A stretch of DNA of 64,000 nt. It comes from Desulfurococcales archaeon (GTDB lineage Archaea; Thermoproteota; Thermoprotei_A; Sulfolobales; Desulfurococcaceae). The position numbers were made by a program, and so were the translations under genes. The notes beneath the pieces are model-generated. The model searched no databases. It was not told where the DNA came from and saw only the letters and a list, made by a program, of their open reading frames with translations. The stretch covers positions 32,001-96,000 of the forward strand of contig JALVYU010000026.1 of NCBI GenBank assembly GCA_027022365.1, in the 5' to 3' direction. Shown here in pieces: positions 44,803 to 61,175 of this stretch. Position 1 is the first letter of the stretch; every line of letters begins with the position of its first letter.

Positions 44803-45363
44803 CTAGAACTTTACATATTTTTCGCCGGGACTACCACAGATGGGGCATTTCTCTGGGGGTTCCGAGCCTATATAGGTGTGGCCGCAAACCGGGCACACCC
44901 AAATATATCCATCTATAGGCATGTCTTGTCCTTTCTCAAGGTATTCCAATGCTTTCTTGTATAGCTCACCATGTATTTTCTCTGCCTCAAGCGCCCACTT
45001 GAAGCTCTGGAGAGCTTGTCTATCGCCTTGTAGTTCCGCGATCTTTATATAGGCTGGATACATTTCCTCTACTTCGAAGTTCTCGCCACGTATTGCCTGG
45101 CCAAGGTTCTTCCTGGTGTCACCGGGTCCGAATGCCGAGCCAGCAACTACTTTGAAGTCAGCGTCTAGTCCGCTTAATCGTCTGGAATGATTTCTAGCAT
45201 GTACATACTCGGCGTAAGCAATTGCTCTGAAGAGCCTAGCTATGTTCTTATATCTTTCACGCTCGGCTATTTCGGCATAGATGAGATAACGCATATGAGC
45301 CATAGATTCTCCGCCGAAGGCAGACATTAGAGCATCCCGAGTCATAGGACGGGGAGCATTCAT
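44803..45363 (-). CDS. rbr: rubrerythrin
   Basis: AFGGES, E..H twice, C-terminal CPVCG...CPICG. Confidence 0.92.
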   Translation of the reverse strand: MNAPRPMTRDALMSAFGGESMAHMRYLIYAEIAERERYKNIARLFRAIAYAEYVHARNHSRRLSGLDADFKVVAGSAFGPGDTRKNLGQAIRGENFEVEEMYPAYIKIAELQGDRQALQSFKWALEAEKIHGELYKKALEYLEKGQDMPIDGYIWVCPVCGHTYIGSEPPEKCPICGSPGEKYVKF

Positions 45364-45445: not shown

Positions 45446-45485
45446 CCCTCCCCCATCTATAAGATCATGTTTTTATGGGGGAGGG
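45446..45485. repeat. 11-bp inverted repeat at element junction
   Basis: CCCTCCCCCAT (45446-45456) N18 ATGGGGGAGGG (45475-45485). Confidence 0.7.
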
Positions 45486-46623
45486 GCAAGGGATGGTTCA
45501 GCTCCACTATGATATGAATAGTATAAAGGTATTAATAGAAAATGGTTGCAAAGAGTTAGGACCCATTTACTGCCGTGTTCTTGAGGATTTATTTTACGAC
45601 TATATGGGTGATACCAGAGTTTCAAGCCTCTCAACCATAAGGGTGGGGCTTGATAAGGCGTGGGTATTCCTCAGATGGCTCAAGGAGAGAGGTGTGAAGC
45701 CAGATAATATAGATGATAGGATCCTTAAGCGCTTCCTAGTAGAGATCAAGATGACGCGGAAACCAGGAACAGTTTTCAGCTACGTAAAAGCCCTGAAAAG
45801 AATGCTGAGAGTACTGGGCAAAGAAGAATTAGCAAACAAGCTAAAGTATCCCAAACAACCCGAAAAGGTTCCAGATCTCCCAAGCCCCGAACTAGTAGAA
45901 AAGATCATATCAGAGCTGAGGGATCCCTTCAAAACCATAGTAGCAATAATCTACGAGACAGGGGCCCGGGTCTCCGAAATACTAAGCCTAAAATACAAGC
46001 ACATCAAAGAGACACCTCAGGGATACTACAAGATCATAATTGAAGAACCAAAAAACAAGGAGTCAAGAACAATATACGTGATAAAATACGCAATGCTTCT
46101 AAGAAACTACTTACTACTACACCCAGGAAAACCAGACGAAATAGTCTTCAAATCACCAGTACACCCGGAGAAACCCCTAAAGCCGAGAAACGTCGAGCTA
46201 GCCCTCAGAAGGGCATCAAGAAAACACAACACACGGATCTACCCACACCTCCTACGACACCTTAGAGCAACCCTCCTAATCAAACAAGGCATGCCGGAGC
46301 GAATAACAATGAAGCTACTAGGCCACAAAACCGAGAAAATGATGAAAATATACGTAAACCTGGTTCAGAAAGACATTGAAGAAGCAGTACTAAAACACTA
46401 CGGAATACAGCCTCAAGCCCAGAACAACGGAAAAGAAGCAACTAAATGCCCAAGATGCGGAGCAACCAACCCCAAGGAAGCAAACTACTGCTGGAGATGT
46501 GCCTACCCACTACACCAACAAGCCGCATTACAATTAGAAATAAAAGAAAAAGACCTGGAAGAAAGACTAAGGAAATTGTTGGAAATTATAAAGAAACATC
46601 CAGAAATTCTCAAAGAGCTATAA
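45475..46623 (+). CDS. int: tyrosine recombinase/integrase with C-terminal zinc ribbon
   Basis: TGARVSE (R), K, HLLRH, LLGH, IY catalytic set; CPRC...CWRC tail; start may be 45493. Confidence 0.92.
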   Translation: MGEGQGMVQLHYDMNSIKVLIENGCKELGPIYCRVLEDLFYDYMGDTRVSSLSTIRVGLDKAWVFLRWLKERGVKPDNIDDRILKRFLVEIKMTRKPGTVFSYVKALKRMLRVLGKEELANKLKYPKQPEKVPDLPSPELVEKIISELRDPFKTIVAIIYETGARVSEILSLKYKHIKETPQGYYKIIIEEPKNKESRTIYVIKYAMLLRNYLLLHPGKPDEIVFKSPVHPEKPLKPRNVELALRRASRKHNTRIYPHLLRHLRATLLIKQGMPERITMKLLGHKTEKMMKIYVNLVQKDIEEAVLKHYGIQPQAQNNGKEATKCPRCGATNPKEANYCWRCAYPLHQQAALQLEIKEKDLEERLRKLLEIIKKHPEILKEL

Positions 46624-46666
46624 AGTCTATTCTAGAATTTTAGTGTATTTGTAAAGATTAATTTAA

Positions 46667-47719
46667 TTAGTTACTAGTATTTTTCATTTCTATAATTTGC
46701 TTTAATATTTTGTACGTTTTTTCCCAAGAACATGAGTTTCCTAATCCCTCGACATCCTTAATAATTTTATATAGTGCTTGTCTATCTATACATTTATTAA
46801 ATATTACATCTTGCATATCTGTAATGTAATCCCTTATAGTTAAATAAGCCATCCATCCGCAGATTTCTGTGAAGTATTTTAAGTATCTAAATAGTTCTTC
46901 AGGAACAGGTTCTAACTCTAACCAGTCTCTATCCGTTATGATTCTTTTTCCAACTTCGGAGAAAATTGGATGGATACGGTGTACGTATCTGGATAATTCG
47001 ACGTAAAGATTATTTATTTTCCCAAGAATATCCCCATCTATAATGTTCCATTCCTTCAATTGGACCAAGAGTTTAGTGAATTTACTTTCTGGATTAAAAT
47101 CTTTTAATTCATTGTCTATGATGTCAAAAACTTGTATAGAAGTATCCAATCGTTTATCTGCTAGCTCGCTAAGTACTTTAACTAAATCGTTAAATCCTTT
47201 TGAATCACCAAATCCTTTTATTTTTTCAATTTCTTTTGCATTATTACGATATTTTGGTATAGTAATTAGATCAAATATTATGCCTCTAACTATATCTTCT
47301 AAGACACTTCTTAGTTCTACATAAGCTACTGTATAGTAACCCATGAGGGCTGAAATTAATGAATGCTCAAGCAAAATTAATGCATCATAATGGTGAACCA
47401 TGTATGCTGAATGTAAATTCCAGAATTGTGTATGTAAAGATTCCTCACACAAACTCTTTGAGGGAAGCAGATTTATGACGATATTTCTAGATACTATAAA
47501 TGCATTCTGTGCTGTGCTAAGAGCTTCAACAGCATCATATGTTGTAGAAGGTTCTGGCAAGTTGCTAAGATTCTCGGCTATTTTCTCTATATATTTTCCT
47601 ACCTTCTTTATTATGTAGAGTATAAAATCTATAGATATAGCAGCCTTTTTAAACACTTCAGTGTTCTTCGGATCTTCTTGATGATTATGCAGTTTTTGAG
47701 AATCACTTATTTTAGACAA
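46667..47719 (-). CDS. AT-rich helical protein, HEPN-like
   Basis: A...LRSVLE and LY..LSRYVH motifs. Confidence 0.5.
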   Translation of the reverse strand: MSKISDSQKLHNHQEDPKNTEVFKKAAISIDFILYIIKKVGKYIEKIAENLSNLPEPSTTYDAVEALSTAQNAFIVSRNIVINLLPSKSLCEESLHTQFWNLHSAYMVHHYDALILLEHSLISALMGYYTVAYVELRSVLEDIVRGIIFDLITIPKYRNNAKEIEKIKGFGDSKGFNDLVKVLSELADKRLDTSIQVFDIIDNELKDFNPESKFTKLLVQLKEWNIIDGDILGKINNLYVELSRYVHRIHPIFSEVGKRIITDRDWLELEPVPEELFRYLKYFTEICGWMAYLTIRDYITDMQDVIFNKCIDRQALYKIIKDVEGLGNSCSWEKTYKILKQIIEMKNTSN

Positions 47720-47884
47720 GATGTACTAATCCCCAATTATATGCTATTATTTATTAAGTTTATGAAAATTTACTTATGTCGGCAATTAAACTCTCAGAAG
47801 CTTCACTTAAATTTGACGAATATTCTAGAAAGCTCTAATGATATAGAATAGAGAGGGATTTGCTGTTTCTAATAAAACTAATAG

Positions 47885-48496
47885 TTATGTTTTGTTTCTT
47901 TTATTTTCTTTCAGTCTTCTCAATAATGTTGAATATGATATATTGAGTAGTCTTGCACAGTCTCTTAGGCTAAGTCCTTTCCTGCGGTATTCTCGGAATT
48001 TCTTCCAGTCGATTTCTTTTCTCGGTCTGCCAATGTGTTTGCCCTGCATCTTCGCCCTCAGCATTCCTTCTCTGGTTCTTTGTCTTAGGAGTTCTCTTTC
48101 CCTCTCCGCGGCCCAAACCAGTACTGCTATGACTAGCTTTCTCACTTGTGGGTCTAGGTTTTGGAGGAACTTCTCCTTATCGCTGACAGTAATAACGGGG
48201 GAGTTCAGCTCCTCTAGCTCCTGGATGGCCCTGAGGGTTTCGTAGAATGTCCTCCCCAATCTGCTCAGCTCATATACTAGGACTGGCCTAGGCTTCTTCC
48301 GTGCATGCTCGATAAGCTCCTTGAAACCCTTCCTCTCCCAGGGAGGAACAGCCCCGCTAACACCAACGTCTTCAAACCACTCTACCACCTTGTAGCCGTT
48401 GGCATCAGCCCACCTCAGTATAGCCAGCCTCTGATTCTCAGGATGCTCCTCCCTCAAACTAACCCTAATATACGCATAGGCCTCGCTCGGCTCCAA
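47885..48496 (-). CDS. serine recombinase (resolvase/invertase) with C-terminal HTH
   Basis: YIRVS catalytic Ser, Q, D.GVSG, SRLGR, ERE...R, GRP, HTH. Confidence 0.92.
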   Translation of the reverse strand: MEPSEAYAYIRVSLREEHPENQRLAILRWADANGYKVVEWFEDVGVSGAVPPWERKGFKELIEHARKKPRPVLVYELSRLGRTFYETLRAIQELEELNSPVITVSDKEKFLQNLDPQVRKLVIAVLVWAAERERELLRQRTREGMLRAKMQGKHIGRPRKEIDWKKFREYRRKGLSLRDCARLLNISYSTLLRRLKENKRNKT

Positions 48497-48510
48497 AACC
48501 CATATCCCCT

Positions 48511-48556
48511 TTTTTACAATAATCTATTGTAAAAACCTAGGCTTTTAAAACTAGGT
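48511..48556. promoter_or_regulatory. two adjacent palindromes upstream of resolvase (res-like site)
   Basis: TTTTTACAATA-ATC-TATTGTAAAAA and ACCTAG-GCTTTTAAAA-CTAGGT. Confidence 0.5.
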
Positions 48557-48731
48557 GCAGAAGGGCCCCCTTTCGAAGCCGAAACGATCATACACTATAT
48601 AAATGAAAAATCTTCTTTGAAAATTCTAAAGAAGTATTATTTACTTGTTTAAATTGCTAGGAATATTTAATTTCTAGTTTTAAAGCTGGATAAATTAATA
48701 TCTTTAATGAAGCTGGCAAAATAAGGGATAT

Positions 48732-49467
48732 GTGATGCTGAGGAAAGCTATCTCGTTTGAAGACCGAGAGGCTATGGTTCTTCTTATCGCTGGTATAATC
48801 TTTATTCTGTTGGTGGGAATAAACTCTGTACTATATTATTATGGCAAGCTAGATGAGCTTTTTGTACATATTTCATTAATGGCTGTATATATTTTCACTG
48901 CGCTAGCGGTTCTATACCAGGCACTCTATACAAAAAGAATGGTTATAGAATCTAAGAGGGTACAAGCATGGCAGATAATAAGTAGTCATCTTTATCATCA
49001 TATAGCTGCATCAATCATGACCTTTAAGCTTGTAGCTAGAGATCTGGATAAATTATCTTCTAAGAAACATGCCGACTGGGAAACTATCAAAAAACTTTTC
49101 AGAACCCCTTTCGTAACCCATAATGCACCCTATATAATACAACCATATATAAAACCTAAACCAGGATTAGGCGCTGGAAGAGGAGCAGAAATATATCGCT
49201 ACAATCCCCGCATTTAATGAAGCCATAGAAGTGCTAGTAAAAGCATGTATAGTTTTAGGCGAGAAGGTGCTCAAAAAAGAATTAGAAAAACTCCGTGAAC
49301 AAATAAAAATGTTAGTAGTCGAAGAACCTAAACCTGAAAATATAAAAAGTATATTAACAACTTTAAAGAGCCATATCAAATCATTATCGGAAAAAGCCGA
49401 AGAAATATTCCATATACCTATAACTGAGCCTTTACTCGAAAGCTTTCAACCAAATATAGACAACTAA
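48732..49467 (+). pseudogene. membrane protein gene split by a +1 frameshift at ~49170
   Basis: Removing one G from TTAGGCG joins the 161-aa and 78-aa ORFs via ALEEEQKYIATIPAFNEAIEV. Confidence 0.6.
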
Positions 49468-49901
49468 TTATCATGTATCGAGTTTAATACATTGTAAAAT
49501 AGTAGTGTTGAAACTATTGAAACTATTTTATTCTTAATATTGATCGAGAAACACTGAAATATAAAGTATTTAATCTTTCGTTTAATCTTTCGGTCCCAAA
49601 GGCCAAAATAAAATTAACAAGCATTGTATCGTTTATGAATGCGATGAATTCTAGGCCATAATAATCCATATTCCACGAGTTTGTACGACCTGCCTATAAG
49701 CTTTTTCAGGGTATTAACTAATGCTCCAAATTGTGAAATATCATTAGGTTCAAGCCTACGCTTTGCTGTATTTATTCCACTTATTACTTGTATAGAAAAC
49801 GGAAATGCAGGGATCCCTAAATATATCAGCCGTTAGAAACCGTACAAAATAGAAGTTAATAAATAAATAATTATGCTTAACGAGTATATGGTGATACAAT
49901 A

Positions 49902-50828
49902 ATGGTTTCTGAAAATTTTTCATCATTTTCATTCGATGATCCCTCATTAATTCTTTCCATAATTTCGATCATTATATCAGCAACATCAGTTGCTGTAACC
50001 TTTCTATATAATAAACGCATGTACAAGCTAGCCTACGAACAAGACCTGTTAATAAGGAAGGAAAAACACTTCAATGAACTAAAGAAATACGTGATCGAGC
50101 CCCTTTTATATGAGGATAAGCGTTCAAGCTTTAATCCATACTTCTTCATAGACATGGTAAGATATCATTATCCTGAAGTAGGCGACCAAATAAAGCAACT
50201 AGTAAAGAAGTATAAATTATATGAAAACCTTGAAGAAAACATAGTAAATACTTGTCTTGCAATAATTAATGAAAAGGGAAGAAAGGAATCAATAGAATTT
50301 TCAATTACGAAATATAAATTAAAAGAACATTTGTCATCCATTATTCGTATTTTAATACACAATGAATTACAGTATCAAAAATACATAGACATAAAGCCTC
50401 CGCTAGAATTTCCTGTAGACGCCATACAAAATAAGGACAAACATAAATTAATTCAAATAACAGTTAGATATGAACTACGCTTCCTAGGGAGTACTATATA
50501 TGTGCATGAAGACGCTGATATAGTACTGAAAGCCAAAGAGGTTTTCTTAGAGGCACTTAATGAGATGCGAAACGATAAAAAATTAAGAAAACTAGCTGAG
50601 CAATATCAAAAAATAGGCCTAGAATTACCCAGATTGAACAGTAAAGTACGTAAAGAACTCATTCGCTTGCTCGAACAACCACCCACAGCACTAAAACTAG
50701 TTAACAATGTGCTATGCCCTTATATGAAAGGACAAGAAGATAAAGAATTTAGTAGGGAGGAAAAGACTATGATAGAGAATCTTTTAAAGAATTTCCCGGG
50801 AGAAAAAAGGGGATTTATTGTAGATTAA
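49902..50828 (+). CDS. N-terminal TM anchored helical protein
   Basis: GGTGA RBS; single TM then charged helical domain. Confidence 0.7.
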   Translation: MVSENFSSFSFDDPSLILSIISIIISATSVAVTFLYNKRMYKLAYEQDLLIRKEKHFNELKKYVIEPLLYEDKRSSFNPYFFIDMVRYHYPEVGDQIKQLVKKYKLYENLEENIVNTCLAIINEKGRKESIEFSITKYKLKEHLSSIIRILIHNELQYQKYIDIKPPLEFPVDAIQNKDKHKLIQITVRYELRFLGSTIYVHEDADIVLKAKEVFLEALNEMRNDKKLRKLAEQYQKIGLELPRLNSKVRKELIRLLEQPPTALKLVNNVLCPYMKGQEDKEFSREEKTMIENLLKNFPGEKRGFIVD

Positions 50829-51020
50829 TTTATTATTAAGTATTGTTCATCACTATCCTGTATCTATAATTAATTTTTGAAAAAGACTCCCACATAAGCT
50901 AATTCCTACCAAAGTCTCCTTTGAAGCCATGAGTTAAAGCTTTAAATTCCTGACCTTATTGATGTGGTTATGAAAAGGTTTATATGGTATGACAAGAATA
51001 CTTTCATCCTAGGTGATAGT

Positions 51021-51326
51021 ATGACCATCGTTAAGAAGACTGTGGCGCTTCATCCTTTAGTTGATAGGGCTGTTAGAAGGCTATGGGCTAGACTGATTGA
51101 GGCTGGACTAGATGCTTCCTATTCTACGGCATTAAACTTATTGGTCATGCTTTCACTTTGCTCCGAGAACCTGGAGGACATAGGACTTGATAAAAAACAA
51201 TGTATGGGCCTCATGCTAGACATACTATTCAGAAACCGTGAAGACATAGAATTCAGCGAACACATGGTCAGAGCAGAAGAAATACTCACGAAGAAGATCA
51301 TACAGTATTTGACAAGAAAACAGTAA
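51021..51326 (+). CDS. small RHH-like DNA-binding protein
   Basis: KKTVALHP..D..VR...SYSTALN; GGTGA RBS before ATG 51021. Confidence 0.55.
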   Translation: MTIVKKTVALHPLVDRAVRRLWARLIEAGLDASYSTALNLLVMLSLCSENLEDIGLDKKQCMGLMLDILFRNREDIEFSEHMVRAEEILTKKIIQYLTRKQ

Positions 51327-51329
51327 AAC

Positions 51330-51425
51330 AGGCCGGGGGGATGATGAGCGCTCGGCGGTTTTACCCTCCAGCCCCACATGGAGGGGATAAAGAGCTTTTA
51401 AGGCGCTGACCCATACCCCCGGCCT
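51330..51425. ncRNA. structured RNA candidate with C and D boxes
   Basis: 10-bp terminal stem AGGCCGGGGG/CCCCCGGCCT, ATGATGA at 51341, CTGA at 51406, inner CCCTCCA/TGGAGGG hairpin. Confidence 0.5.
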
Positions 51426-51539
51426 CCAATATACTACTATTTTTCAAAGCCTTATATAAAGATATGAATTCAGGAATTTCCGGAGGCCCTACTCCATGAT
51501 CGAGATGAGCATCGAGATTGAAGGTAAGAGAGTTTATTT

Positions 51540-51881
51540 CTATCCTTTACTCTCGCGGAATGGCCTCAATGATTTTGTCTCATTAATTACTAGCACGGGC
51601 TTTAATACCGTGGTCGCTGGGTTTACACATAGTGTTATAGAGCTTGAGAATATGTTAGTAGATAATATCTCTACTATGAATGAAATCGGGTTTTCTATAT
51701 CATGAACAGTAAGAGCCAGGGCCTCACTCAGCCGGCAACCAGTATACACTAAGATCGATACAAGCGCTAGATCGCGTATACCGTATTGCCCCCGCTTATA
51801 AGCTCTATACGCTCTCTTCAAAGCATCAACCAAAGCCTCAAACCGGGGAACATCATCAAGCTTTAGTTTAGGACCACTCAA
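51540..51881 (-). pseudogene. truncated tyrosine recombinase
   Basis: RDLALVSILVYTGCRLSEALALTVHDI (box I) followed by unrelated sequence; no HxxR/Y. Confidence 0.75.
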
Positions 51882-52085: not shown

Positions 52086-52481
52086 ATGAGTGTTTCCCAA
52101 GAAATACTAGCCAGACTGGGAATAGACCGTAGAAGAGCAGCTTCTCTCCCCAAAGAACAAATACTAAAACTCAGCAAAACCGTTGAAAGAACCACCTATA
52201 ACGAGAAAGTTCTCATAAAACTATCCCAGAAGCTCTATAATGAGCTCTCAACACCCTTAGATAAAGCAATAAAGGATGAAACAGAGAAGCTCACAATAAT
52301 AGATCTTATCCGCACAATATCAAATCTAGACATTCTCTACGAACTAATCAAAGGAGAAGCAAACACACCAATAGAGGACAAGATCCTAAAATACATAGGA
52401 CTTGAAATAGAACTACTAAAAACTACCCTAGAAAAAAGATACGAGCTATTCAAAAACTCGAACGCGCCAAAGGAGAAATAA
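52086..52481 (+). CDS. hypothetical helical protein
   Basis: 131-aa ORF with A/C-rich element-type codon usage. Confidence 0.6.
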   Translation: MSVSQEILARLGIDRRRAASLPKEQILKLSKTVERTTYNEKVLIKLSQKLYNELSTPLDKAIKDETEKLTIIDLIRTISNLDILYELIKGEANTPIEDKILKYIGLEIELLKTTLEKRYELFKNSNAPKEK

Positions 52482-52537: not shown

Positions 52538-52732
52538 ATGCTAACAGATATACTAAAAACCTCTATACATCTCCTAGCCTATGTAACAGGCCTAATACAA
52601 TCAGTAGACATAATAGGAAAGAATCTAAGAGAAGCAAACAAAGAATTATCACAAATGCTAGGCAACCTCCTAAACATATTAGAAGAAATAAATCCTCAGA
52701 AAAGGAACCGATCCTCAGAAATGTATGTATAA
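52538..52732 (+). CDS. hypothetical small protein
   Basis: 64-aa ORF. Confidence 0.4.
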   Translation: MLTDILKTSIHLLAYVTGLIQSVDIIGKNLREANKELSQMLGNLLNILEEINPQKRNRSSEMYV

Positions 52733-52760: not shown

Positions 52761-53837
52761 TTAGTTGACCCCTTCATATTTAACTATTAGCATATCTGAA
52801 GTAAACGCTATTGGAAAAAGATTAAGTTCTTCAGAAATTTTAACTATTTCTTCTTTTATAGCGTTTAAGATAATATTGTTTAATAGTTTGTCTTTCTTTT
52901 GATGAATATTGATTATATAATTAGCTGTTTCCTGTATAGTATATAAATTAAAGTCAGGAATAATTTCAATTATATTAAATCCCTCATTAAGTATATTTTC
53001 AACAATCTTCCTTTTATCTTTTGAAGCTACGTAGGGATACATTATATAGCCCTTTCTAAGACCATTAATCTTAAGAGCTTCTTTTCCACGTTTTATCCAA
53101 GTTAATAACTCTTTCATTGAATAATACGGATCGCATTCAAAGATATCGAAACGTCCTACGAGATCACGAGGTAAGGGATCAAATAGATCGTGATGTACTG
53201 TTTCTAGTGAAATTCCGTATTTATTTCCAATTTTGTTTAATTTATCTAATAAATCGGAATCCAAATCGATGACATATATTTTTAGATCAATTTCGTATTT
53301 TTTGAATAATATGCCAAGAGCAATGCTAAGACAATCATCATCGCCCAACATTACAGCATTTTTGAGTTCGAAACCATTATCGATTAATATTTTAATAGCT
53401 CTATTTACTATCGAATAAACATGTGCAGGGTATTGATTTAAATGACGTTTCAGTTTTATAGAGTTTCGAACATCATTTATCGCAGTTATTATTTCATAAA
53501 AAGTTTCTGAAGGAATATTTAATAACAATCTATTGTTAAGTGTTATTATTTTTTCTTCTTTAAGTATCTTCAATAAAGTATAAGAAGGTAAAATTCCTAT
53601 TTTTCTGACTATGTCACAAATAGACTTAAAATCAGAATTAGAAATAATAACTCTTGTCATGCATTCATAAAATATCTCATAAGGTATTTTTGAATAAAGA
53701 GCATTCCTTATTTCCTCTATATCTTTATATGTATTCGTATAAAGATATATTCCTATTTTTTCGAAGATCCTTATTATATATTTGGTTAATTGGTTAATGA
53801 ACGCATTATAGAGTTTATAACTCGTATTTGAATCCAT
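52761..53837 (-). CDS. BpsA-like (DUF43) aminopropyltransferase, SAM-dependent methyltransferase fold
   Basis: NQ, R, LGDDD.LSIAL, IDLD..L, HDLFDPLP, FD.F.CDP, IIPDFN.Y match branched-chain polyamine synthase motifs. Confidence 0.75.
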   Translation of the reverse strand: MDSNTSYKLYNAFINQLTKYIIRIFEKIGIYLYTNTYKDIEEIRNALYSKIPYEIFYECMTRVIISNSDFKSICDIVRKIGILPSYTLLKILKEEKIITLNNRLLLNIPSETFYEIITAINDVRNSIKLKRHLNQYPAHVYSIVNRAIKILIDNGFELKNAVMLGDDDCLSIALGILFKKYEIDLKIYVIDLDSDLLDKLNKIGNKYGISLETVHHDLFDPLPRDLVGRFDIFECDPYYSMKELLTWIKRGKEALKINGLRKGYIMYPYVASKDKRKIVENILNEGFNIIEIIPDFNLYTIQETANYIINIHQKKDKLLNNIILNAIKEEIVKISEELNLFPIAFTSDMLIVKYEGVN

Positions 53838-53854
53838 AAACTACACCCTATCTA

Positions 53855-54991
53855 TTATATTATGCCTTGATGAAAAAGTTTGTTTGAAAATGATTTTATA
53901 TAATGATATATATATTTCATAAGCTCACATTTATAGGTTACAGGAATATGTATATTGTTATAAAAATATTTACTCTCCAAGGGGCATTCACCACCACAGA
54001 TATTAATAGCTTTACACTTTAGACACTTAGGAATATTTACTGTTAATCTTTCATTCCATGTTTTAAAAGGATCTAATTTATCTAGTTCATTTAAATCCCT
54101 AATATTATTCACATCAATAAATTCAGAAGTTAAGGCAGCACAAGGACTAATGTACCCTCCCGGTGAATAAATAATATGAATACCACATCCAAAACAATCA
54201 GGAATAGGTGGTTCTTTTTTTAAATAATAGGATAGTGCTTCAGTTAACTTAGAGCTTATATAGGCATGCTTCTGGATGCTAACATTTAGTGCGTCCAGAA
54301 GAGCTTTAAATAACATCTGTGGGTCAAGAACTTCGTTTCTATTTCTTGCTATAGGTATATTTAAGTCTATGTACTTTGTTCGAGTAATATTTAATATATG
54401 AATTAGTGATTCTTTTATATGATTAATATTGTGTTTATGTATAGTACATGCTATTCTAAATCTTATATTAAATTTTCTTAAAAGATTAATAGCACTAACT
54501 ATCTCATGATACGAACCTGATCCGTCAGGTTTAATTCTCATGAGATCATTGATATTTTCTGGTCCGTCCAGGGATATTGCTATGTTTATATTTAATTCTT
54601 TTAAAAGTTTCACGATTTTTTCATCTATAAGTGTCCCGTTAGTTATAATAGAGATCGTATACGGGCCAGTATCATGTCTTAATATTATCTTTAATACTTT
54701 TTTAAACAATTCTTTATAGAGGAGAGGCTCTCCTCCATAAAATCTATATACTCTTCTTTTGTTTAAATTATGCCTTATGAACATTTTTAGAAAATATTCA
54801 AACTTATTAAAGTTAAATGTTTCATTTAAATTAAGTTTATGAACCAGATAACAATATCTACATCTAAGGTTACAGTGCCAAGTTGGTATTATATATAATA
54901 CTGAGTATTTTAATGAATCTCTATATTTTTTTATGCTTTTTATTAATTTTGATGTTTCATCGCTCAAAAAGCCAACACCTAGGATCTCCAT
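53855..54991 (-). CDS. radical SAM/SPASM enzyme (anSME/ranthipeptide maturase-like)
   Basis: CNLRCRYC, FYGGEPLL, TNG, SLDG...ND..R..GS, SPASM C..CLKC...ICGGECP...C. Confidence 0.88.
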   Translation of the reverse strand: MEILGVGFLSDETSKLIKSIKKYRDSLKYSVLYIIPTWHCNLRCRYCYLVHKLNLNETFNFNKFEYFLKMFIRHNLNKRRVYRFYGGEPLLYKELFKKVLKIILRHDTGPYTISIITNGTLIDEKIVKLLKELNINIAISLDGPENINDLMRIKPDGSGSYHEIVSAINLLRKFNIRFRIACTIHKHNINHIKESLIHILNITRTKYIDLNIPIARNRNEVLDPQMLFKALLDALNVSIQKHAYISSKLTEALSYYLKKEPPIPDCFGCGIHIIYSPGGYISPCAALTSEFIDVNNIRDLNELDKLDPFKTWNERLTVNIPKCLKCKAINICGGECPLESKYFYNNIHIPVTYKCELMKYIYHYIKSFSNKLFHQGII

Positions 54992-56024
54992 GGTTTAAGT
55001 CCATATAATAAATATAAGACATTGCTGGACAACCACCACATATCTTTTGGAATTTACAGAATCGGCATTTACCTATAGATTCCCTTGCTACTTGCCTGTA
55101 ATATATGATCTTTTTCTTTATAAACAATTTAGTATTTAGAATATTGCCTATAGGGTCAGGTATATATAAGCAAGGAAGGATTGTTCCATCAGGCATCATA
55201 TATATCTTAGATATACACATGCCACAATATTTCTCTAAGTTGAACGTTTCTTTTATTCTTGTTGTATTAATTTGTTCTAATTGTTTATTATATTTTTTAA
55301 GGATATATGGAACTATAAAAGGAATGGTAGTTTTTACTTTAAAATCATTACGACCGTTGAACATATATTGAATATTTTTCTTAATAATAATTTCAAATAA
55401 TCTTTCATAATCTTTTTTATTTAGTATAATATCTTTAAGATTCTTGGCGCGACCTACCGGGATCAAATCGGTTAAAACGATGCCTTTAGAACCTATATTA
55501 TAAGCAAAATCGCAAAGACTATCTACATAGTTCAAATTCGTTTTTGTGACAACAGATGCAATACTAAAAGGTATTTCGTGCTTTTTTAATAATTTTAAAG
55601 TTCTTAGAACTTTTTTGAAAGTACCTCTGCCCCTGAACACATCATTTATATATTCTAATGGTGCATCCAGACTTATGATTATATCTATATAATCTTTTTC
55701 TTTAGCTAATAAATTGACAAATTGTTCTTTAATCAAAGTTCCATTAGTATTGATTCCTACCCTTATACCATAATCAATAAGTCTTTTAACTATTTCCGTA
55801 AATTGATTACATAAAAAGGGTTCTCCTCCAGTTATACCTATTTCTTTTATATTTAAATTTGAAAGTTTTTCCACGATTTCTAACTTTATACCATAATTGA
55901 TTTCTTTGAATAATTTACTTAAATAAACATTTGAACAATATGAGCAGTTTAAATTACACCTGAAAGTAACAACCCAAGTTATGTATTTAATATTTTTTAA
56001 AAAATCATATATTTTTTCATGCAT
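54957..56024 (-). CDS. radical SAM/SPASM enzyme (PqqE/NirJ-like)
   Basis: CNLNCSYC, TGGEP, TNGT, SLD, RGRG.F, PVGRA, PDG..LPC, CRFC...CGGC...DPRC. Confidence 0.88.
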   Translation of the reverse strand: MHEKIYDFLKNIKYITWVVTFRCNLNCSYCSNVYLSKLFKEINYGIKLEIVEKLSNLNIKEIGITGGEPFLCNQFTEIVKRLIDYGIRVGINTNGTLIKEQFVNLLAKEKDYIDIIISLDAPLEYINDVFRGRGTFKKVLRTLKLLKKHEIPFSIASVVTKTNLNYVDSLCDFAYNIGSKGIVLTDLIPVGRAKNLKDIILNKKDYERLFEIIIKKNIQYMFNGRNDFKVKTTIPFIVPYILKKYNKQLEQINTTRIKETFNLEKYCGMCISKIYMMPDGTILPCLYIPDPIGNILNTKLFIKKKIIYYRQVARESIGKCRFCKFQKICGGCPAMSYIYYMDLNHGDPRCWLFER

Positions 56025-56053
56025 CTGTAGATCACTATTTAATATTATAGATA

Positions 56054-56194
56054 TTATGTTACGCCAGGACTAATTTGACACTTGCATTTAGCACATGCAG
56101 TCAATACATTATTTATTATCAACTTTAATACATCATCTTTATTGATAATAATTTCCTCCTCCGAAATTTTTGGATTAGCTAACTCAGCCAACAT
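56054..56194 (-). CDS. putative RiPP precursor peptide (46 aa)
   Basis: MLAELANPKISEEEIIINKDDVLKLIINNVLTACAKCKCQISPGVT; GGTGA RBS, TATA box, first gene of the rSAM operon. Confidence 0.75.
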   Translation of the reverse strand: MLAELANPKISEEEIIINKDDVLKLIINNVLTACAKCKCQISPGVT

Positions 56195-56226
56195 TGTCAC
56201 CTAATTTATTGAAATGTTTCATATTA

Positions 56227-56234
56227 TATATAAA
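56227..56234 (-). promoter_or_regulatory. TATA box of precursor/rSAM operon
   Basis: TTTATATA on minus strand about 33 nt upstream of ATG 56194, preceded by A-rich BRE-like bases. Confidence 0.55.
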
Positions 56235-56384
56235 ATTTATTGTTGGTCTTAGTTCAGTGTTATTAAGATAATTTATAAATACCATAATTGAAATATAGAG
56301 AACGAAGTACCAATAATATGGTTGCTTGACCAAGAATATTGGATATTAATTGATATACTGATCTTATATGATATTGGTGAAATA

Positions 56385-57665
56385 ATGTTTAGAAGAACGT
56401 ATGTATCATCGCTTTTTCTCGTATTGGTTGTTACTGTTGTTTTGCGGAGTATTGGTGATGTTGTTGAGGAGGTTACTGTTCCTTGGCAGGTGCTTGATTT
56501 TACGAATAGTATTTTTCTTGTTGGTGGTGTTTTTGTGTCGTATTTGTTGCCTTGGGTTTTTATTCCGTTTATTGCTGGTAGAGTTATTGATATTGCTAGG
56601 AATAAGTCCTTTGTTGTTGCTTTTTGTATGATTATGCAGATCTCGTCTGTTTTATTGATTATGTTCATGCTTTCTACTGGTTTAGAGACCTTATGGTTTC
56701 TCGGAATAGTCTATTTATCAATAATTGTTATAAGTACTACTGACTCTATACATAGGTATTTTGTGTTTACCAGCATTCCTGAACTAGTGGGGAAGAATGA
56801 GGCTCTCCTTAACAAGTTCAATAGTATTACAGAGCTTTCATCGGGAATAGGAACTATAGTCATGTATGTTCTCTGCGGATACTTGGTAGCAGTATATGGT
56901 TATAAGACGCTCTGGATAGACGTTTTATGCTTAACCATTATAGCTCTTCTACTAATCGATCTCAGCAGATCATTCAAAAAGAAACGCTTACGCTTCTACA
57001 AGGGTGCGTCTATGAATAAGGGCAAACAAATAAAATTTAAAGATCTGCTCAGTACTATAAAAAGGGATCCATTGGTGTTTTCTTACCTCGTTGTCGCTCT
57101 GGGTTTCAATTTCTTCACAGCACCCGTTTCTTTAGTTCTGATAAATTATCTTTACAATACCGTCGATGAACCCACTAAGTACTATGGCTTTATCATGGCG
57201 ATTTCAACTCTTGGAGCAATAATAGGTTCTGGCATAGTAGCTACGTATTCTAAAAAACTGAAATATATTTCTTGTATCATTATCGGGTTACTTGGTGAAG
57301 CAGTAGCTGTTGCAGGAGTATATTTCATAATAGCATATTCTAACGAATATTATAATTGGATACTTACCTTGTTATTAGTCACGGGTATGTATATGATAAT
57401 GGCTATTATGGGAGCAGTGCTGAATATAGGAGCTGATACATTGTTTCAAATGAGGATCCCAGAAGAAGTTCTAGGAAGTTTCAGGGGATTATTTGATAGT
57501 TTGGCCACTATTCCTATAGCATTATCATATATAGTTGTATCAACAATACTAGAGACGTGGGGATACACTATTATAACAGCATCACTAATGGGAATAGGAT
57601 CCATAATAATAGCCTTACTATACATAATCGCATATTCTATATTAATAAAGAAATTAAATACATAG
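56385..57665 (+). CDS. MFS transporter (Mef/DHA3-like exporter)
   Basis: About 12 TM helices, G..ID...K motif A, IPELV, Q..IPEE.LG; GGTGA RBS before ATG 56385. Confidence 0.85.
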   Translation: MFRRTYVSSLFLVLVVTVVLRSIGDVVEEVTVPWQVLDFTNSIFLVGGVFVSYLLPWVFIPFIAGRVIDIARNKSFVVAFCMIMQISSVLLIMFMLSTGLETLWFLGIVYLSIIVISTTDSIHRYFVFTSIPELVGKNEALLNKFNSITELSSGIGTIVMYVLCGYLVAVYGYKTLWIDVLCLTIIALLLIDLSRSFKKKRLRFYKGASMNKGKQIKFKDLLSTIKRDPLVFSYLVVALGFNFFTAPVSLVLINYLYNTVDEPTKYYGFIMAISTLGAIIGSGIVATYSKKLKYISCIIIGLLGEAVAVAGVYFIIAYSNEYYNWILTLLLVTGMYMIMAIMGAVLNIGADTLFQMRIPEEVLGSFRGLFDSLATIPIALSYIVVSTILETWGYTIITASLMGIGSIIIALLYIIAYSILIKKLNT

Positions 57666-57669
57666 CAGG

Positions 57670-58851
57670 ATGATTATGATGCAAAAGTCTCGTTTAAAAC
57701 ATTTACAGATATTACCAACATTATCGTGTAATATGAACTGTGATTACTGTTACATAAAATTTGCTCCTATGACACAAATTAATTATAAAATGAGTAATGA
57801 TACAGTTGATCTGATAGTTGAATCTATACGCCAAAAAAAGCTTCAATTATCTGATAATGCTACAATTACATTTCTGGGTGGGGAAGTAACTCTTTGTCCA
57901 GAAATTATAGATAGATTTTTTATAAAGCTTCACGACAATCTAAAGAAGAATAAATATATTATCAATATCCAAACTAATGGTTTAGAAATAAGTTCCCTCA
58001 TAGAGATATTACGAAAATTCAAAGATATTTTACCGCAAATAAACATAACGATTAGCATAGATGGTTTTGAAAAAATTCATGACTTTTATAGAAAGGACAA
58101 AAATGGCAACGGGACATTCAAGAGGATCCAAAAGAATTTAATAATGTTATTGAGATTATTGCATCCTAGCAAGATAACTATTCAGTCAACATTAACAAAT
58201 AAAACAAAAAATATTCATAATTTTATAAAAACCTTTCACTCATATGGTATAACAAAATTTCAACTAGTACCTGTAATCACTCCTCCAAGTCTTAGTCATA
58301 TGAGAATTAAACCAACGAATTACCTTGATGAATATATCAAAGTCATCGATTACTATTTTGAGTGCTTAAAAAAAGAAAATCCATTTACAGAAGATTTAAT
58401 ATCTCATTATTTATACAGAATATTGTCTTTAACTAATATCTTGACTAATCCAACTAATTTTCCTGAAAATATATGTCCTATAGGGGTTTCTGTTCTTGCA
58501 ATCGATCCTAAAGGATATGTATATCCCTGTTCAATGTTTGTAGGTTTTAAAGACTATTGTCTCGGAAGGATTGATAATATAGATAAGACTAAAGTAGAAA
58601 ATATAGTTCGGAAAGTAATACAGGGAAGAAGGAAATATTGTAGAAATTGTAAATTAATTAATATCTGTGATCATGGATGCGTAGCAAGAAACCTTATAGA
58701 AAAAAGTGATATAGCTATATTCCCTAAAGAATATTGTAGTATTAAAAGAAATATAATATTATATATTATCAAAAAGCTTTCTAGTATATTACCGAATCTC
58801 AATCCATATTTTCAACATATAGAAAAAGAATTAAGTTTACAGTATTTATGA
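57670..58851 (+). CDS. radical SAM/SPASM enzyme (anSME/ranthipeptide maturase-like)
   Basis: CNMNCDYC, FLGGE, QTNG, SIDG...HD..R...GNGTF, C..G...DPKG.VYPC, CRNC...C..GC...C. Confidence 0.88.
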   Translation: MIMMQKSRLKHLQILPTLSCNMNCDYCYIKFAPMTQINYKMSNDTVDLIVESIRQKKLQLSDNATITFLGGEVTLCPEIIDRFFIKLHDNLKKNKYIINIQTNGLEISSLIEILRKFKDILPQINITISIDGFEKIHDFYRKDKNGNGTFKRIQKNLIMLLRLLHPSKITIQSTLTNKTKNIHNFIKTFHSYGITKFQLVPVITPPSLSHMRIKPTNYLDEYIKVIDYYFECLKKENPFTEDLISHYLYRILSLTNILTNPTNFPENICPIGVSVLAIDPKGYVYPCSMFVGFKDYCLGRIDNIDKTKVENIVRKVIQGRRKYCRNCKLINICDHGCVARNLIEKSDIAIFPKEYCSIKRNIILYIIKKLSSILPNLNPYFQHIEKELSLQYL

Positions 58852-59321: not shown

Positions 59322-61175
59322 CTAATAGGAGTGGGTAATTATATCAAGGGCTTTTTCTAGATCTATTTTTCCACCATACATTTGTATCGTTAATAGTAGT
59401 TTCACTGCCCATTCGCCGTGATGATCTCTTATTTGTGTTAAGAGTCTCTTGTCCAGTCCACGCATCGTGCCTGCAGGTGTTCGTGTTCTAATGTATTTCC
59501 ACAGGTCCGGGCTGTAATAGACCATGCCTTTCTCCAGGTCTACGGATATTAGTCCTACTTCTATTAGCTCGTATAGCTTTTTCCAGCCTGGATGTCTGGT
59601 GTAGTCTTCATATTTGGTCTCCTTGTCTAGTACTAGCTTGTTCTTCTTGAGGGCTTTGATGAGCTCTGGTATTATTTTCTTGATGACTATTTCGCCGCAC
59701 TGTATCACGGCCTGCTTGTAGAGGGGCTCGATAACGTTGACTAGGCCGGCTTCCCATAGTTGTCTTAGTTGTTGCTTGAGTCCTGGGCCTAGGCCTCTCC
59801 ACGCGGCCTCAACGATCTTTTCATAATCCTTCTCGGACAAAGTACATACTACTGGCTGCTTATTGAACACCGTCTCCACTAGAACCCGTTTCAGCCCCGC
59901 CTTAACCTCTGCTATCTCCCGGTGTAACTTGGCTATTGAGCCAGCAACATCTACGTGGGCCTGGAAGAGATTCAATAAGTCCTCAACACTCATCTCATTC
60001 TTTCTCCTACGGATCCTCCTCTCAATTCTCAGCGGTCCATCACCGTCGACACCACCCTTTAGGTAGGCAACCAAGTCCCCGGCCGTGAACTGGCCGGCCC
60101 GGAACTGGAGGCTACCCCTCCACAAATCACAGTGCAGGTCGACACGTAGAACAGATAAATCAACAACCCCAACCTCTACACCAAGAACCCCGGAAAGCTC
60201 CCCAACCAAAGCCTCCAGAAACCCCTCAAGCTCCCCGGGACCACTAAAAGACCCAGAAACAATAACCTCACAACCACCACTATATCCACACAAAACCCTA
60301 ACCCTACGACCCAAAACCTCAAACACAAACCCAAGCTTACCACCCATACCACTACCAACAACCCGAAAACCCCTCCTCGACAAACACACAAAACCACAAT
60401 GCCCCGGAACATACAAAACCAAACCATTAACACCACAAGAACCATCCTCACCACTAACACCGCCAAACCCAGCCGCAGGCGGGGCCCCTCCCCCAGCCTC
60501 CCCGATCACATTTTGCCCGGTATCAGAACCCTTGCTGGCGTCGGGGGCTTTACTACTACATATTAATGGTAATAGTGAACAAATCCTATTGGAAACCCTG
60601 TAGAGTCCCCGCTTAATCCTCTCGACATAGCCTGTTCTACGGAGCCTCCACAGATACTTCTTAACAAGATGGGGATCCAGTTTCAGGTAGAAGGCTAGAG
60701 TAGAAGGAGTAAACACCCGGAGCCTAGCTGCAGCCTCCAGGATCCTGCGGGAGACCATGCCTAGGAGACTAGGTCTAGGATGCCTTGAGACACTACTTGA
60801 GACACCCGGACCAGGAGTCACATCAACTCCATGAGACAAAGGACTAGAAGTCACTTCAAGACCATGAGACACCCTAGCAGAAGTCTCTTCACAACATGAG
60901 ACAACTCCATGAGACACCTGGTTGCTGGAGCACTTCTTCCTAGAGACAGGTAATAAGCCAGCAGCTGTCTCATTATAGGCTATATGAGACATTTGATTAG
61001 ACCTAGACCTCTTCGGAACATAGACTCCCAGAGCGATAAGCTTCCTACGAACCCAATCCTTAGAGATATAGAGGTTAAACCTAGAGGAAACCATACGGGC
61101 TATCTTACGGAGACTAAACCCTTGACGGTAGAGCTCTACGGTATACAAGAGAACAGGATCCAGGGACTGGGCCAA
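59322..61175 (-). CDS. putative replication initiator (HTH + wHTH + Rep_trans-like motifs)
   Basis: N-terminal HTH, wHTH (LWRLRRTGYVERIKRGLY), RVDLHCD...YLK...LRIER. Confidence 0.5.
   Translation of the reverse strand: MAQSLDPVLLYTVELYRQGFSLRKIARMVSSRFNLYISKDWVRRKLIALGVYVPKRSRSNQMSHIAYNETAAGLLPVSRKKCSSNQVSHGVVSCCEETSARVSHGLEVTSSPLSHGVDVTPGPGVSSSVSRHPRPSLLGMVSRRILEAAARLRVFTPSTLAFYLKLDPHLVKKYLWRLRRTGYVERIKRGLYRVSNRICSLLPLICSSKAPDASKGSDTGQNVIGEAGGGAPPAAGFGGVSGEDGSCGVNGLVLYVPGHCGFVCLSRRGFRVVGSGMGGKLGFVFEVLGRRVRVLCGYSGGCEVIVSGSFSGPGELEGFLEALVGELSGVLGVEVGVVDLSVLRVDLHCDLWRGSLQFRAGQFTAGDLVAYLKGGVDGDGPLRIERRIRRRKNEMSVEDLLNLFQAHVDVAGSIAKLHREIAEVKAGLKRVLVETVFNKQPVVCTLSEKDYEKIVEAAWRGLGPGLKQQLRQLWEAGLVNVIEPLYKQAVIQCGEIVIKKIIPELIKALKKNKLVLDKETKYEDYTRHPGWKKLYELIEVGLISVDLEKGMVYYSPDLWKYIRTRTPAGTMRGLDKRLLTQIRDHHGEWAVKLLLTIQMYGGKIDLEKALDIITHSY
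60785..60991. repeat. TGAGACA iteron-like array
   Basis: Seven direct copies (60786, 60798, 60832, 60865, 60897, 60910, 60985) and one inverted (60966). Confidence 0.8.

Follow-up and report, generated by a model that had tools for sequence, protein, structure and literature searches.

Three radical S-adenosylmethionine (SAM) enzymes, a relative of a polyamine-branching transferase, and a probable exporter are encoded together on a small island of an archaeal genome, which raises the question of what they act upon and whether a 46-codon open reading frame (ORF) beside them encodes it. The locus belongs to a 64,000-nucleotide (nt) stretch of DNA, referred to below as the window, from a Desulfurococcales archaeon (GenBank assembly GCA_027022365.1, contig JALVYU010000026.1, positions 32,001 to 96,000), and the ORF lies at 56054..56194 on the minus strand. 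It is followed on this strand by two radical SAM genes (rSAM1 and rSAM2) and by the gene of a protein similar to BpsA, the N4-bis(aminopropyl)spermidine synthase; a major facilitator superfamily (MFS) transporter gene and a third radical SAM gene (rSAM3) are divergently oriented on the plus strand. The ORF is probably a real gene that encodes the precursor of a ribosomal peptide modified by radical SAM enzymes. The odds are about even that these enzymes build thioether bridges on the three Cys residues of the peptide, and it is possible, but rather doubtful, that the BpsA-like enzyme adds an aminopropyl group to Lys36/Lys38 or to a new N-terminus.

Translation of the ORF yields MLAELANPKISEEEIIINKDDVLKLIINNVLTACAKCKCQISPGVT followed by a stop codon (TAA at 56054-56056), which is identical to the 46-residue peptide with a C-x-x-C-x-C motif announced in a preliminary description of the locus, and the existence of the ORF is thereby confirmed. 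All Cys residues (34, 37, and 39, in the order C-A-K-C-K-C) fall within the last 13 residues, the Lys residues of this motif are 36 and 38, and there is no His in the peptide. Residues 1–33 are acidic and leader-like, with a net charge of −3.5, and residues 34–46 (CAKCKCQISPGVT) are basic and core-like, with a net charge of +1.7. The leader/core layout proposed earlier is in keeping with this acidic front and basic Cys/Lys tail, and the strand and position are those expected of a precursor. The stop codon is separated by 29 nt from the rSAM1 ATG (56024) on the same strand; the position given previously was correct, and the distance of 30 nt was not. The ORF had also been regarded as unannotated, which does not wholly hold, as the identical protein has already been gene-called and is recorded on 2 contigs in a collection of 5.8 billion proteins, and a 48-residue form starting at an in-frame GTG two codons 5′ of the ATG is present in the ORF list of the window. 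A contig from a different study spans 55921-56192 with 0 differences. The ATG is the likelier start, because the alternative GTG falls within an AGGTGA motif.

This motif (56197..56202, minus strand) resembles a Shine–Dalgarno sequence and ends 2 nt 5′ of the ATG. The 3′ tail of the host 16S rRNA, read from its own genome, is ...GGATCACCTCC and is complementary to AGGTGA, which thus represents a 6-nt Shine–Dalgarno match. Eight GGTGA strings occur on both strands of the 7.3-kb island, one of them 5′ of the ORF and another 4 nt before the MFS ATG, and GTGATC occurs four times, once at a distance of 5 nt from the rSAM1 ATG. A TATA-box-like string, TTTTATATATAA (56224..56235, minus strand), whose centre lies about 36 nt 5′ of the ATG, may act as a promoter element, but it carries little weight because such strings are common at 26% GC. 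Of the two signals ascribed to the ORF in the preliminary description, the putative ribosome-binding site is thus supported by its complementarity to the 16S tail, and the TATA-like string, present where it was placed, does not discriminate.

Could such a frame be fortuitous? It is an unlikely explanation, to be taken seriously all the same, that the ORF is a chance frame in an AT-rich divergent promoter region and that the enzymes act on a precursor encoded elsewhere, on a larger protein, or on a polyamine or cofactor. Length alone favours this explanation, since equally long ORFs appear in 16–18% of shuffles (18.3% of 5000 dinucleotide shuffles of the 376 nt at 56025-56400, and 15.7% when only ATG starts are counted). 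A joint test, which asked for an ORF of at least 30 residues on the operon strand, ending no more than 60 nt from rSAM1 and bearing at least three Cys in its last 20 residues, argues against chance with 0.28% of 10000 shuffles, but its criteria were chosen post hoc, with the ORF already seen, and the figure is no clean probability. The well-placed AGGTGA also speaks against a chance frame, as Shine–Dalgarno matches of at least 5 nt at −18 to −2 precede only 20 of the 253 island ATGs. Codon usage was scored in windows of 46 codons with a table built from five island genes. The ORF scores 0.189 bits per codon, the mean of the genuine in-frame windows being 0.169 ± 0.088, and takes the 59th percentile among these; it outscores every one of the 340 frame-shifted windows and, of the 510 antisense ones, 507. 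Against this, it ranks only 5th among 28 open small ORFs of the island, behind four that are all clearly spurious.

A precursor elsewhere finds little room on the island, where just 1 of 36 small ORFs has at least three Cys in its last 20 residues, namely the candidate precursor itself (7 of 348 in the whole window), and there is no second copy of the peptide in the host genome. Two further small frames were rejected as precursors: a 64-residue ORF (52538-52732, plus strand), which has no Cys, faces the opposite way, and gives only a sub-threshold Pfam match, and a 49-residue ORF (56184-56333, minus strand), which likewise has no Cys. Four DNA runs searched at 80% likeness returned short fragments, either identical or one letter off, none of which differs within the ORF. 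Other metagenomes carry the same strain, and in them the ORF is without variants.

The search for relatives weighs against a genuine precursor and for a chance frame, as zero homologues of the peptide were found. A word-indexed search of the 5.8 billion proteins retrieved only the peptide itself, and a HMMER search of 1.84 billion representatives added one 983-residue repeat protein (P0125), which was dismissed as a compositional match since its 8 stretches align with residues 12-32 alone. When 400 other genomes of the phylum were searched in six frames, no match was significant (best E 0.016, mostly within long frames). No Pfam precursor family matches the peptide, nor does any in NCBIfam at E up to 0.01. 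The Atlas protein language model is uninformative here, with a recognition value of 1753 (<2300) and a best score of 0.79, beneath the useful level; its nearest look-alikes are the Zn-ribbon-like small families YhfH and DUF4428.

The cluster as a whole fares no better, and this too counts against the precursor reading: no syntenic relative was detected in any of the genome, metagenome, and viral collections searched. The scans of these collections brought up generic radical SAM/SPASM genes alone (22–36% identity), with no BpsA-like, MFS-like, or peptide-like neighbours. For rSAM1, 60 related genomes hold only paralogues (24–36% identity), the genome-contig scan gave 2 partial matches (32%), and the best non-self match among the 5.8 billion proteins is 31% identical. 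The metagenome scan yielded 37 loci for rSAM3 (22–36%), and the viral scan none for rSAM2. The BpsA-like protein is absent from all 60 related genomes, and the 5.8-billion-protein search found itself and one match with 30% identity over 51% of the length. Finally, tblastn of the peptide, the BpsA-like protein, and the MFS protein against 39 fetched loci gave 0 matches each.

The nature of the enzymes bears directly on what they might modify. rSAM1 (54957..56024, minus strand, 355 residues, Pfam Radical_SAM 85.6 bits) overlaps by 35 nt with rSAM2 (53855..54991, minus strand, 378 residues), and rSAM3 (57670..58851, plus strand, 393 residues) begins 4 nt past the MFS gene. Three radical SAM enzymes had been assumed previously, and all three prove to be complete radical SAM/SPASM enzymes. 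Each has the CX3CX2C motif, as CNLNCSYC at residue 23 in rSAM1, CNLRCRYC at 40 in rSAM2, and CNMNCDYC at 20 in rSAM3, and their Pfam Radical_SAM scores lie between 62 and 86 bits. The SPASM Cys residues, arranged as CX2CX5CX2-3C with flanking Cys and suited to ligate two auxiliary clusters, are likewise found as a full set in all three, with the Pfam SPASM model itself matching rSAM3 only. rSAM1 keeps 14 of the 14 invariant columns of a 98-sequence alignment, including seven SPASM Cys. Pairwise identity among the three proteins is 25–29%, which suggests differing chemistries and not a division of one Cys to each enzyme. The notion of three Cys for three radical SAM enzymes is numerology: AlbA and PapB are examples of maturases that make several links on their own.

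None of the three reaches a curated NCBIfam cut-off, all scores being far beneath. In the ranking of these models, PapB comes first for rSAM2 (128 bits) and rSAM3 (162.3 bits, cut-off 340), with DynA and anaerobic sulfatase maturases also similar to rSAM2 and CteB to rSAM3, and the model of the SCIFF maturase gives 100 bits for rSAM3 and 74 bits for rSAM2 (cut-off 425). For rSAM2 and rSAM3, the closest curated models are accordingly those of peptide maturases, in favour of a peptide substrate. For rSAM1, the NirJ-type NirJ2 and AhbD precede ScmE and MftC. AhbD and NirJ work on tetrapyrroles and not on peptides, which favours another substrate, as does the activity of BpsA itself on polyamines. 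The modification of a large protein, and not a short peptide, by the archaeal SPASM enzyme CrpC (PMC13692751, as far as the available part of that paper describes it) points the same way.

The best solved relatives are CteB (5wgg) for rSAM3, SkfB (6efn) for rSAM1, and an anaerobic sulfatase maturase for rSAM2. Residue 4 of rSAM3 aligns with residue 91 of CteB and residue 17 of rSAM1 with residue 113 of SkfB, and the third alignment starts at CteB residue 81; the island enzymes are therefore devoid of an N-terminal peptide-recognition domain. Two further gaps detract from a precursor-based system, as no PqqD-type Pfam match, which would indicate the frequent, though not universal, recognition element for RiPPs (peptides that ribosomes make and that are modified after translation), occurs in any cluster protein and no such domain is fused to rSAM1–3, and no leader peptidase is recognised in the cluster. 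In the BpsA-like protein, the N-terminal 106 residues are modelled with a pLDDT score (the predicted value of the local distance difference test) below 50, so a recognition element may still be hidden there.

Several known systems were considered for these enzymes and set aside. Mycofactocin does not fit, as rSAM1 scores 123 bits with MftC (cut-off 265) over residues 14-217 only, and no further Mft-type gene is found among the scanned cluster proteins. The HXS system is disfavoured by an HxsB score of 108 bits for rSAM3 (cut-off 370) and by a peptide without His. The PADLOC pVip models of prokaryotic viperin match the radical SAM core alone (44–83 bits), the NCBIfam viperin model gives 78 and 53.5 bits against 180, and all three enzymes bear SPASM Cys. 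The SynChlorMet and ACGX families are far beneath their cut-offs.

Co-folding, suggested as a check in the preliminary description, was run for rSAM1 with the peptide and gave a score of 0.43 (runs 0.49, 0.43, and 0.39), against 0.02 for the best of three controls. The runs share at least 45% of contacts, and the pLDDT of the partner is at least 48. In calibration, 58 of 80 solved complexes attained the mark, compared with 2 of 110 mismatched pairs; the counts apply only roughly here, as rSAM1 was folded with a purpose-made 98-row alignment. At scores of 0.60 or less, just 7 of the 80 solved complexes attained the mark, as did both passing mismatches. The pass thus falls in the weak range, which tells against giving it much weight, and it may mirror a likeness to solved complexes of radical SAM enzymes with peptides. 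Related solved complexes are those of CteB with CteA and SuiB with SuiA. Binding was already to be expected from the genomic context, and the result was for this reason counted as modest support; it weakly supports a predicted binding of the peptide to rSAM1 and speaks, to that extent, against a chance frame.

The last gene of the minus-strand row (52761..53837, 358 residues, 17 nt past rSAM2) encodes the protein that the preliminary description had called an aminopropyltransferase. It is indeed of the BpsA_C family, which is of the aminopropyltransferase type (87.7 bits for PF01861, whose cut-off is 27), and its GDDD motif is intact. The 88-bit match covers profile positions 37-191 of 243, compared with 181–238 bits for 12 canonical genes from 300 other genomes of the phylum, from which the island protein has thus diverged strongly. 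Residues G165-D166-D167-D168 align with the GDDD of 5xnc and are invariant across 14 aligned sequences; a further motif, DPYY, occupies residues 236-239. In BpsA, GDDD serves to place the aminopropyl group that decarboxylated SAM donates, according to the available part of a published account (PMC12979288). The protein matches the solved BpsA chains 5xnc and 6j27 in a sequence search of the Protein Data Bank (PDB), the nine top Foldseek matches of its model are BpsA or its Pyrococcus orthologue, and Atlas places it with a BpsA_C cluster at a score of 0.96, the nearest cluster being mostly from Aenigmatarchaeota. The single-sequence model is useless (pLDDT 39), and the 14-sequence model is usable only at residues ~107-290; the first ~135 residues neither align nor fold confidently.

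The residues that activate the acceptor in Tk-BpsA were mapped by hand on the PDB sequence alignment, with a chain offset of 20 set from the position of GDDD. Asp225 (D236) and Tyr290 (Y299) are kept, Glu259 is replaced by V270, and Tyr316 lies beyond the alignment. There is also no clear C-terminal acidic carrier cluster: the tail has two EE pairs only (KEEIVKISEEL), aligns poorly, and has a pLDDT below 50. Both features detract from the proposed scheme, and the activity and donor of the enzyme are therefore uncertain. Decarboxylated SAM itself should be available, because the host has two SAM decarboxylase (AdoMet_dc) genes. No other BpsA_C gene above the cut-off occurs in the host or in 13 genomes of its own family, which speaks for a function tied to the island and not for housekeeping in polyamine metabolism.

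As a fallback, the enzyme might transfer a methyl group rather than an aminopropyl group. Methyltransferases that act on amines or amides, METTL5 and N6AMT1 among them, supply its next-best Foldseek folds, and its DPYY resembles the (D/N)PP(Y/F) motif typical of METTL5/N6AMT1-like methyltransferases. Besides, a second BpsA_C clade was noticed (loci L036 and L039-L042, protein P0004), which carries a DPPY motif and a C-terminal zinc-ribbon-like CxxC...CxxC; four of its members have a long C-terminal extension and reach ~550 residues in total. The canonical clade has SEPLET at the position of DPPY, and the island enzyme, with its DPYY, is nearer the DPPY type.

If the ORF is a precursor gene, the following course of events may be proposed. 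With a promoter of its own, the ORF would be the leading gene of a transcribed unit comprising the precursor, rSAM1, rSAM2, and the BpsA-like gene, and would presumably be translated. The acidic, amphipathic N-terminal ~33 residues, a provisional boundary, would act as a leader that brings the basic 13-residue core to the radical SAM/SPASM enzymes, which have no recognition domain of their own. One or more of these enzymes would then link Cys sulfurs to carbons of residues close by, so that thioethers of sactionine or ranthionine type arise; the C-X-X-Q/D pattern given in the available part of the CrpC study (PMC13692751) is matched by C37-K-C-Q40 in the core. The BpsA_C-type enzyme might subsequently alkylate an amine of the peptide, on Lys36/Lys38 or a new N-terminus, most likely with an aminopropyl group from decarboxylated SAM, and the divergently encoded MFS pump could export the product. 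It is rather unlikely, on the whole, that all this amounts to an undescribed class of peptide, with a thioether-bridged core whose amines are aminopropylated by the BpsA-type enzyme into a polyamine-like polycation, brought to its vent host by a mobile element, possibly out of a DPANN-type archaeon of low GC, and perhaps directed at competitors or viruses, with nucleic-acid binding as one conceivable mode of action.

That the product of the ORF is a genuine small protein with a role other than substrate is very improbable; such a protein might be a helper that binds metal or a cluster, a peptide for immunity or regulation, or a partner that assists the maturases. The C-x-x-C-x-C tail could bind metal, the language-model look-alikes are Zn-ribbon-like (at 0.79 only), and a helper might be expected for enzymes without a recognition domain, but 46 residues are too short for a PqqD-type recognition element (~80–90 residues), an acidic front and a basic Cys-rich tail directly before the first maturase form the usual layout of a precursor, and there is no family match of any kind.

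The MFS transporter (56385..57665, plus strand) is a probable exporter with 61.7 bits for MFS_1 and 95.5 bits, below the cut-off, for TIGR00900. Its start is more likely the ATG at 56385, which has GGTGA at 56376, 4 nt upstream, than the listed TTG at 56322; a start at 56385 gives a divergent promoter region of ~190 nt. The GC content of the cluster is 27–32%, compared with 41–52% in the flanks. Genes of mobile type lie nearby, namely a tyrosine integrase that carries a zinc ribbon (45475-46623), a serine resolvase (47885-48496), and an integrase fragment (51540-51881), and a 617-residue ORF at 59322-61175 has a weak AbiEi_4 (AbiEi-type) domain. Given this low GC content and these neighbours, the island looks acquired and seems to lie in a mobile or defence-island-like region. 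The parts of the window at 45475-51881 and 59322-61175 form a GC mosaic (27–52%) that resembles stacked mobile elements or a defence island. At the borders of the island, no convincing flanking direct repeats were found, and the window contains no tRNA gene or Rfam family. Two plus-strand ORFs at its low-GC edge face the cluster: one of 131 residues (52086-52481), with no Pfam or PADLOC match, and the 64-residue ORF already mentioned, with its sub-threshold Pfam match alone.

The host genome measures 1.74 Mb and is 99.97% complete, and the contig of the window exceeds 566 kb. The rRNA genes of the host best fit archaeal models when related models compete (1170 bits for the small subunit and 864 bits for the large subunit). 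The 16S rRNA gene, on contig C7 of genome G000 (locus L082, 1-1920), matches the archaeal model piecewise in one search, and its positions 286-1256 (970 nt) span only 328 positions of that model. This points to ~640 inserted nt, perhaps an intron of the rRNA. The 3′ end is placed at 1907 by one search and at 1846 by another. The DNA of the window is present in hydrothermal-vent metagenomes; of the 8 runs that carry it, none is listed as RNA. A 186-residue ORF (44803-45363, minus strand) is rubrerythrin-like by eye, with a C-terminal CPVCGH...CPICG motif of rubredoxin type, and suggests a host that may be anaerobic or microaerophilic.

Clusters for radical-SAM-modified peptides are widely predicted in archaea, and the characterised archaeal RiPP products named in the available parts of two papers are two, both lanthipeptides (PMC12144867; PMC13635244). 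An archaeal radical SAM/SPASM enzyme that has been characterised, CrpC, acts on a large protein, as the accessible text has it (PMC13692751). The present locus is a compact set, in which one 46-residue substrate candidate is joined by three differing SPASM enzymes that have no recognition domain and by one probable exporter. Its main points of interest are a tailoring enzyme of BpsA type and three SPASM enzymes lacking recognition domains that are proposed to converge on one tiny core. No literature link of the BpsA family (DUF43/PF01861), or of an aminopropyltransferase, to the modification of RiPPs or other peptides was found, supplementary files being outside the scope of the search. The polyamine-branching family has no known peptide substrate, and aminopropylation of lysine, if true, would be a new modification of peptide natural products and a new function of BpsA; with an undescribed peptide class of the kind outlined above, a peptide would for the first time be a substrate of the BpsA family. 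Should the ORF be a mere chance frame, the locus would still raise the question of the joint product of three SPASM enzymes and a BpsA-like enzyme.

Among characterised systems, the ranthipeptide/SCIFF type (CteA–CteB, PapA–PapB) resembles the locus in a precursor of ~45 residues with C-terminal Cys, encoded beside a radical SAM/SPASM maturase, and one C-X-X-Q is present here. Unlike in that type, the peptide has three Cys instead of six, matches no precursor family, and comes from an archaeal host; the ~90-residue N-terminal domain of CteB is missing from the island enzymes, which comprise three mutually distant maturases accompanied by a BpsA-type enzyme and remain far beneath the cut-offs of 340 and 425 bits. 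Sactipeptides (SkfA–SkfB and subtilosin with AlbA) are similar in having Cys donors N-terminal to possible acceptors and a short core, and SkfB is the nearest solved relative of rSAM1. The match to SkfB, however, covers the radical SAM core only (residues 17-212, 57 bits), rSAM1 is without the N-terminal domain, and the island core has 13 residues.

Another archaeal case is provided by Methanococcus voltae, where the SPASM enzyme CrpC forms ranthionine links on the Cys-rich CrpA, which is encoded next to it and has a leader-like N-terminus (PMC13692751, available part). The likeness thus extends to an archaeal SPASM enzyme, a Cys-rich substrate encoded alongside, and a leader-like front. CrpA is, in contrast, a large repeat protein, CrpC has a predicted recognition element in the same account, and with the CrpC model (TIGR04463), whose cut-off is 525, rSAM2 reaches 80 bits and rSAM3 70 bits. 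BpsA shares with the island transferase the PF01861 family, the GDDD motif, the equivalents of Asp225 and Tyr290, and the fold found by Foldseek. The island enzyme differs in being encoded in a peptide-maturation operon and not among polyamine genes, in an N-terminal domain that does not align, and in the replacement of Glu259 by Val.

Aminopropylation of a ribosomal peptide has a precedent in microcin C, the single documented case found, where the group is placed on a phosphoramidate by MccD/MccE and export is by the MFS pump MccC, as related in the available part of PMC4010828. A ribosomal peptide product, an aminopropyl decoration, and MFS export are thus common to both, here as predictions from the genes. 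The acceptor in microcin C is a phosphoramidate and not an amine, MccD/MccE are not BpsA_C enzymes, and radical SAM enzymes take no part in it. In the anti-phage system HXS (HxsA-D), paired radical SAM enzymes mature the product of a neighbouring gene in a mobile setting (PMC13128918, available part). The island is comparable in its radical SAM genes beside a putative substrate, in its mobile surroundings, and in the resemblance of rSAM3 to HxsB noted above, but that score falls short of the cut-off, His-Xaa-Ser repeats are missing from the peptide, and no HxsD-like gene was recognised. The locus thus has the layout of sactipeptide, ranthipeptide, and SCIFF systems, with no recognition element and with every curated family test failed; it is plausible, if unproven, that it works as radical SAM peptide systems do and stands outside any named family.

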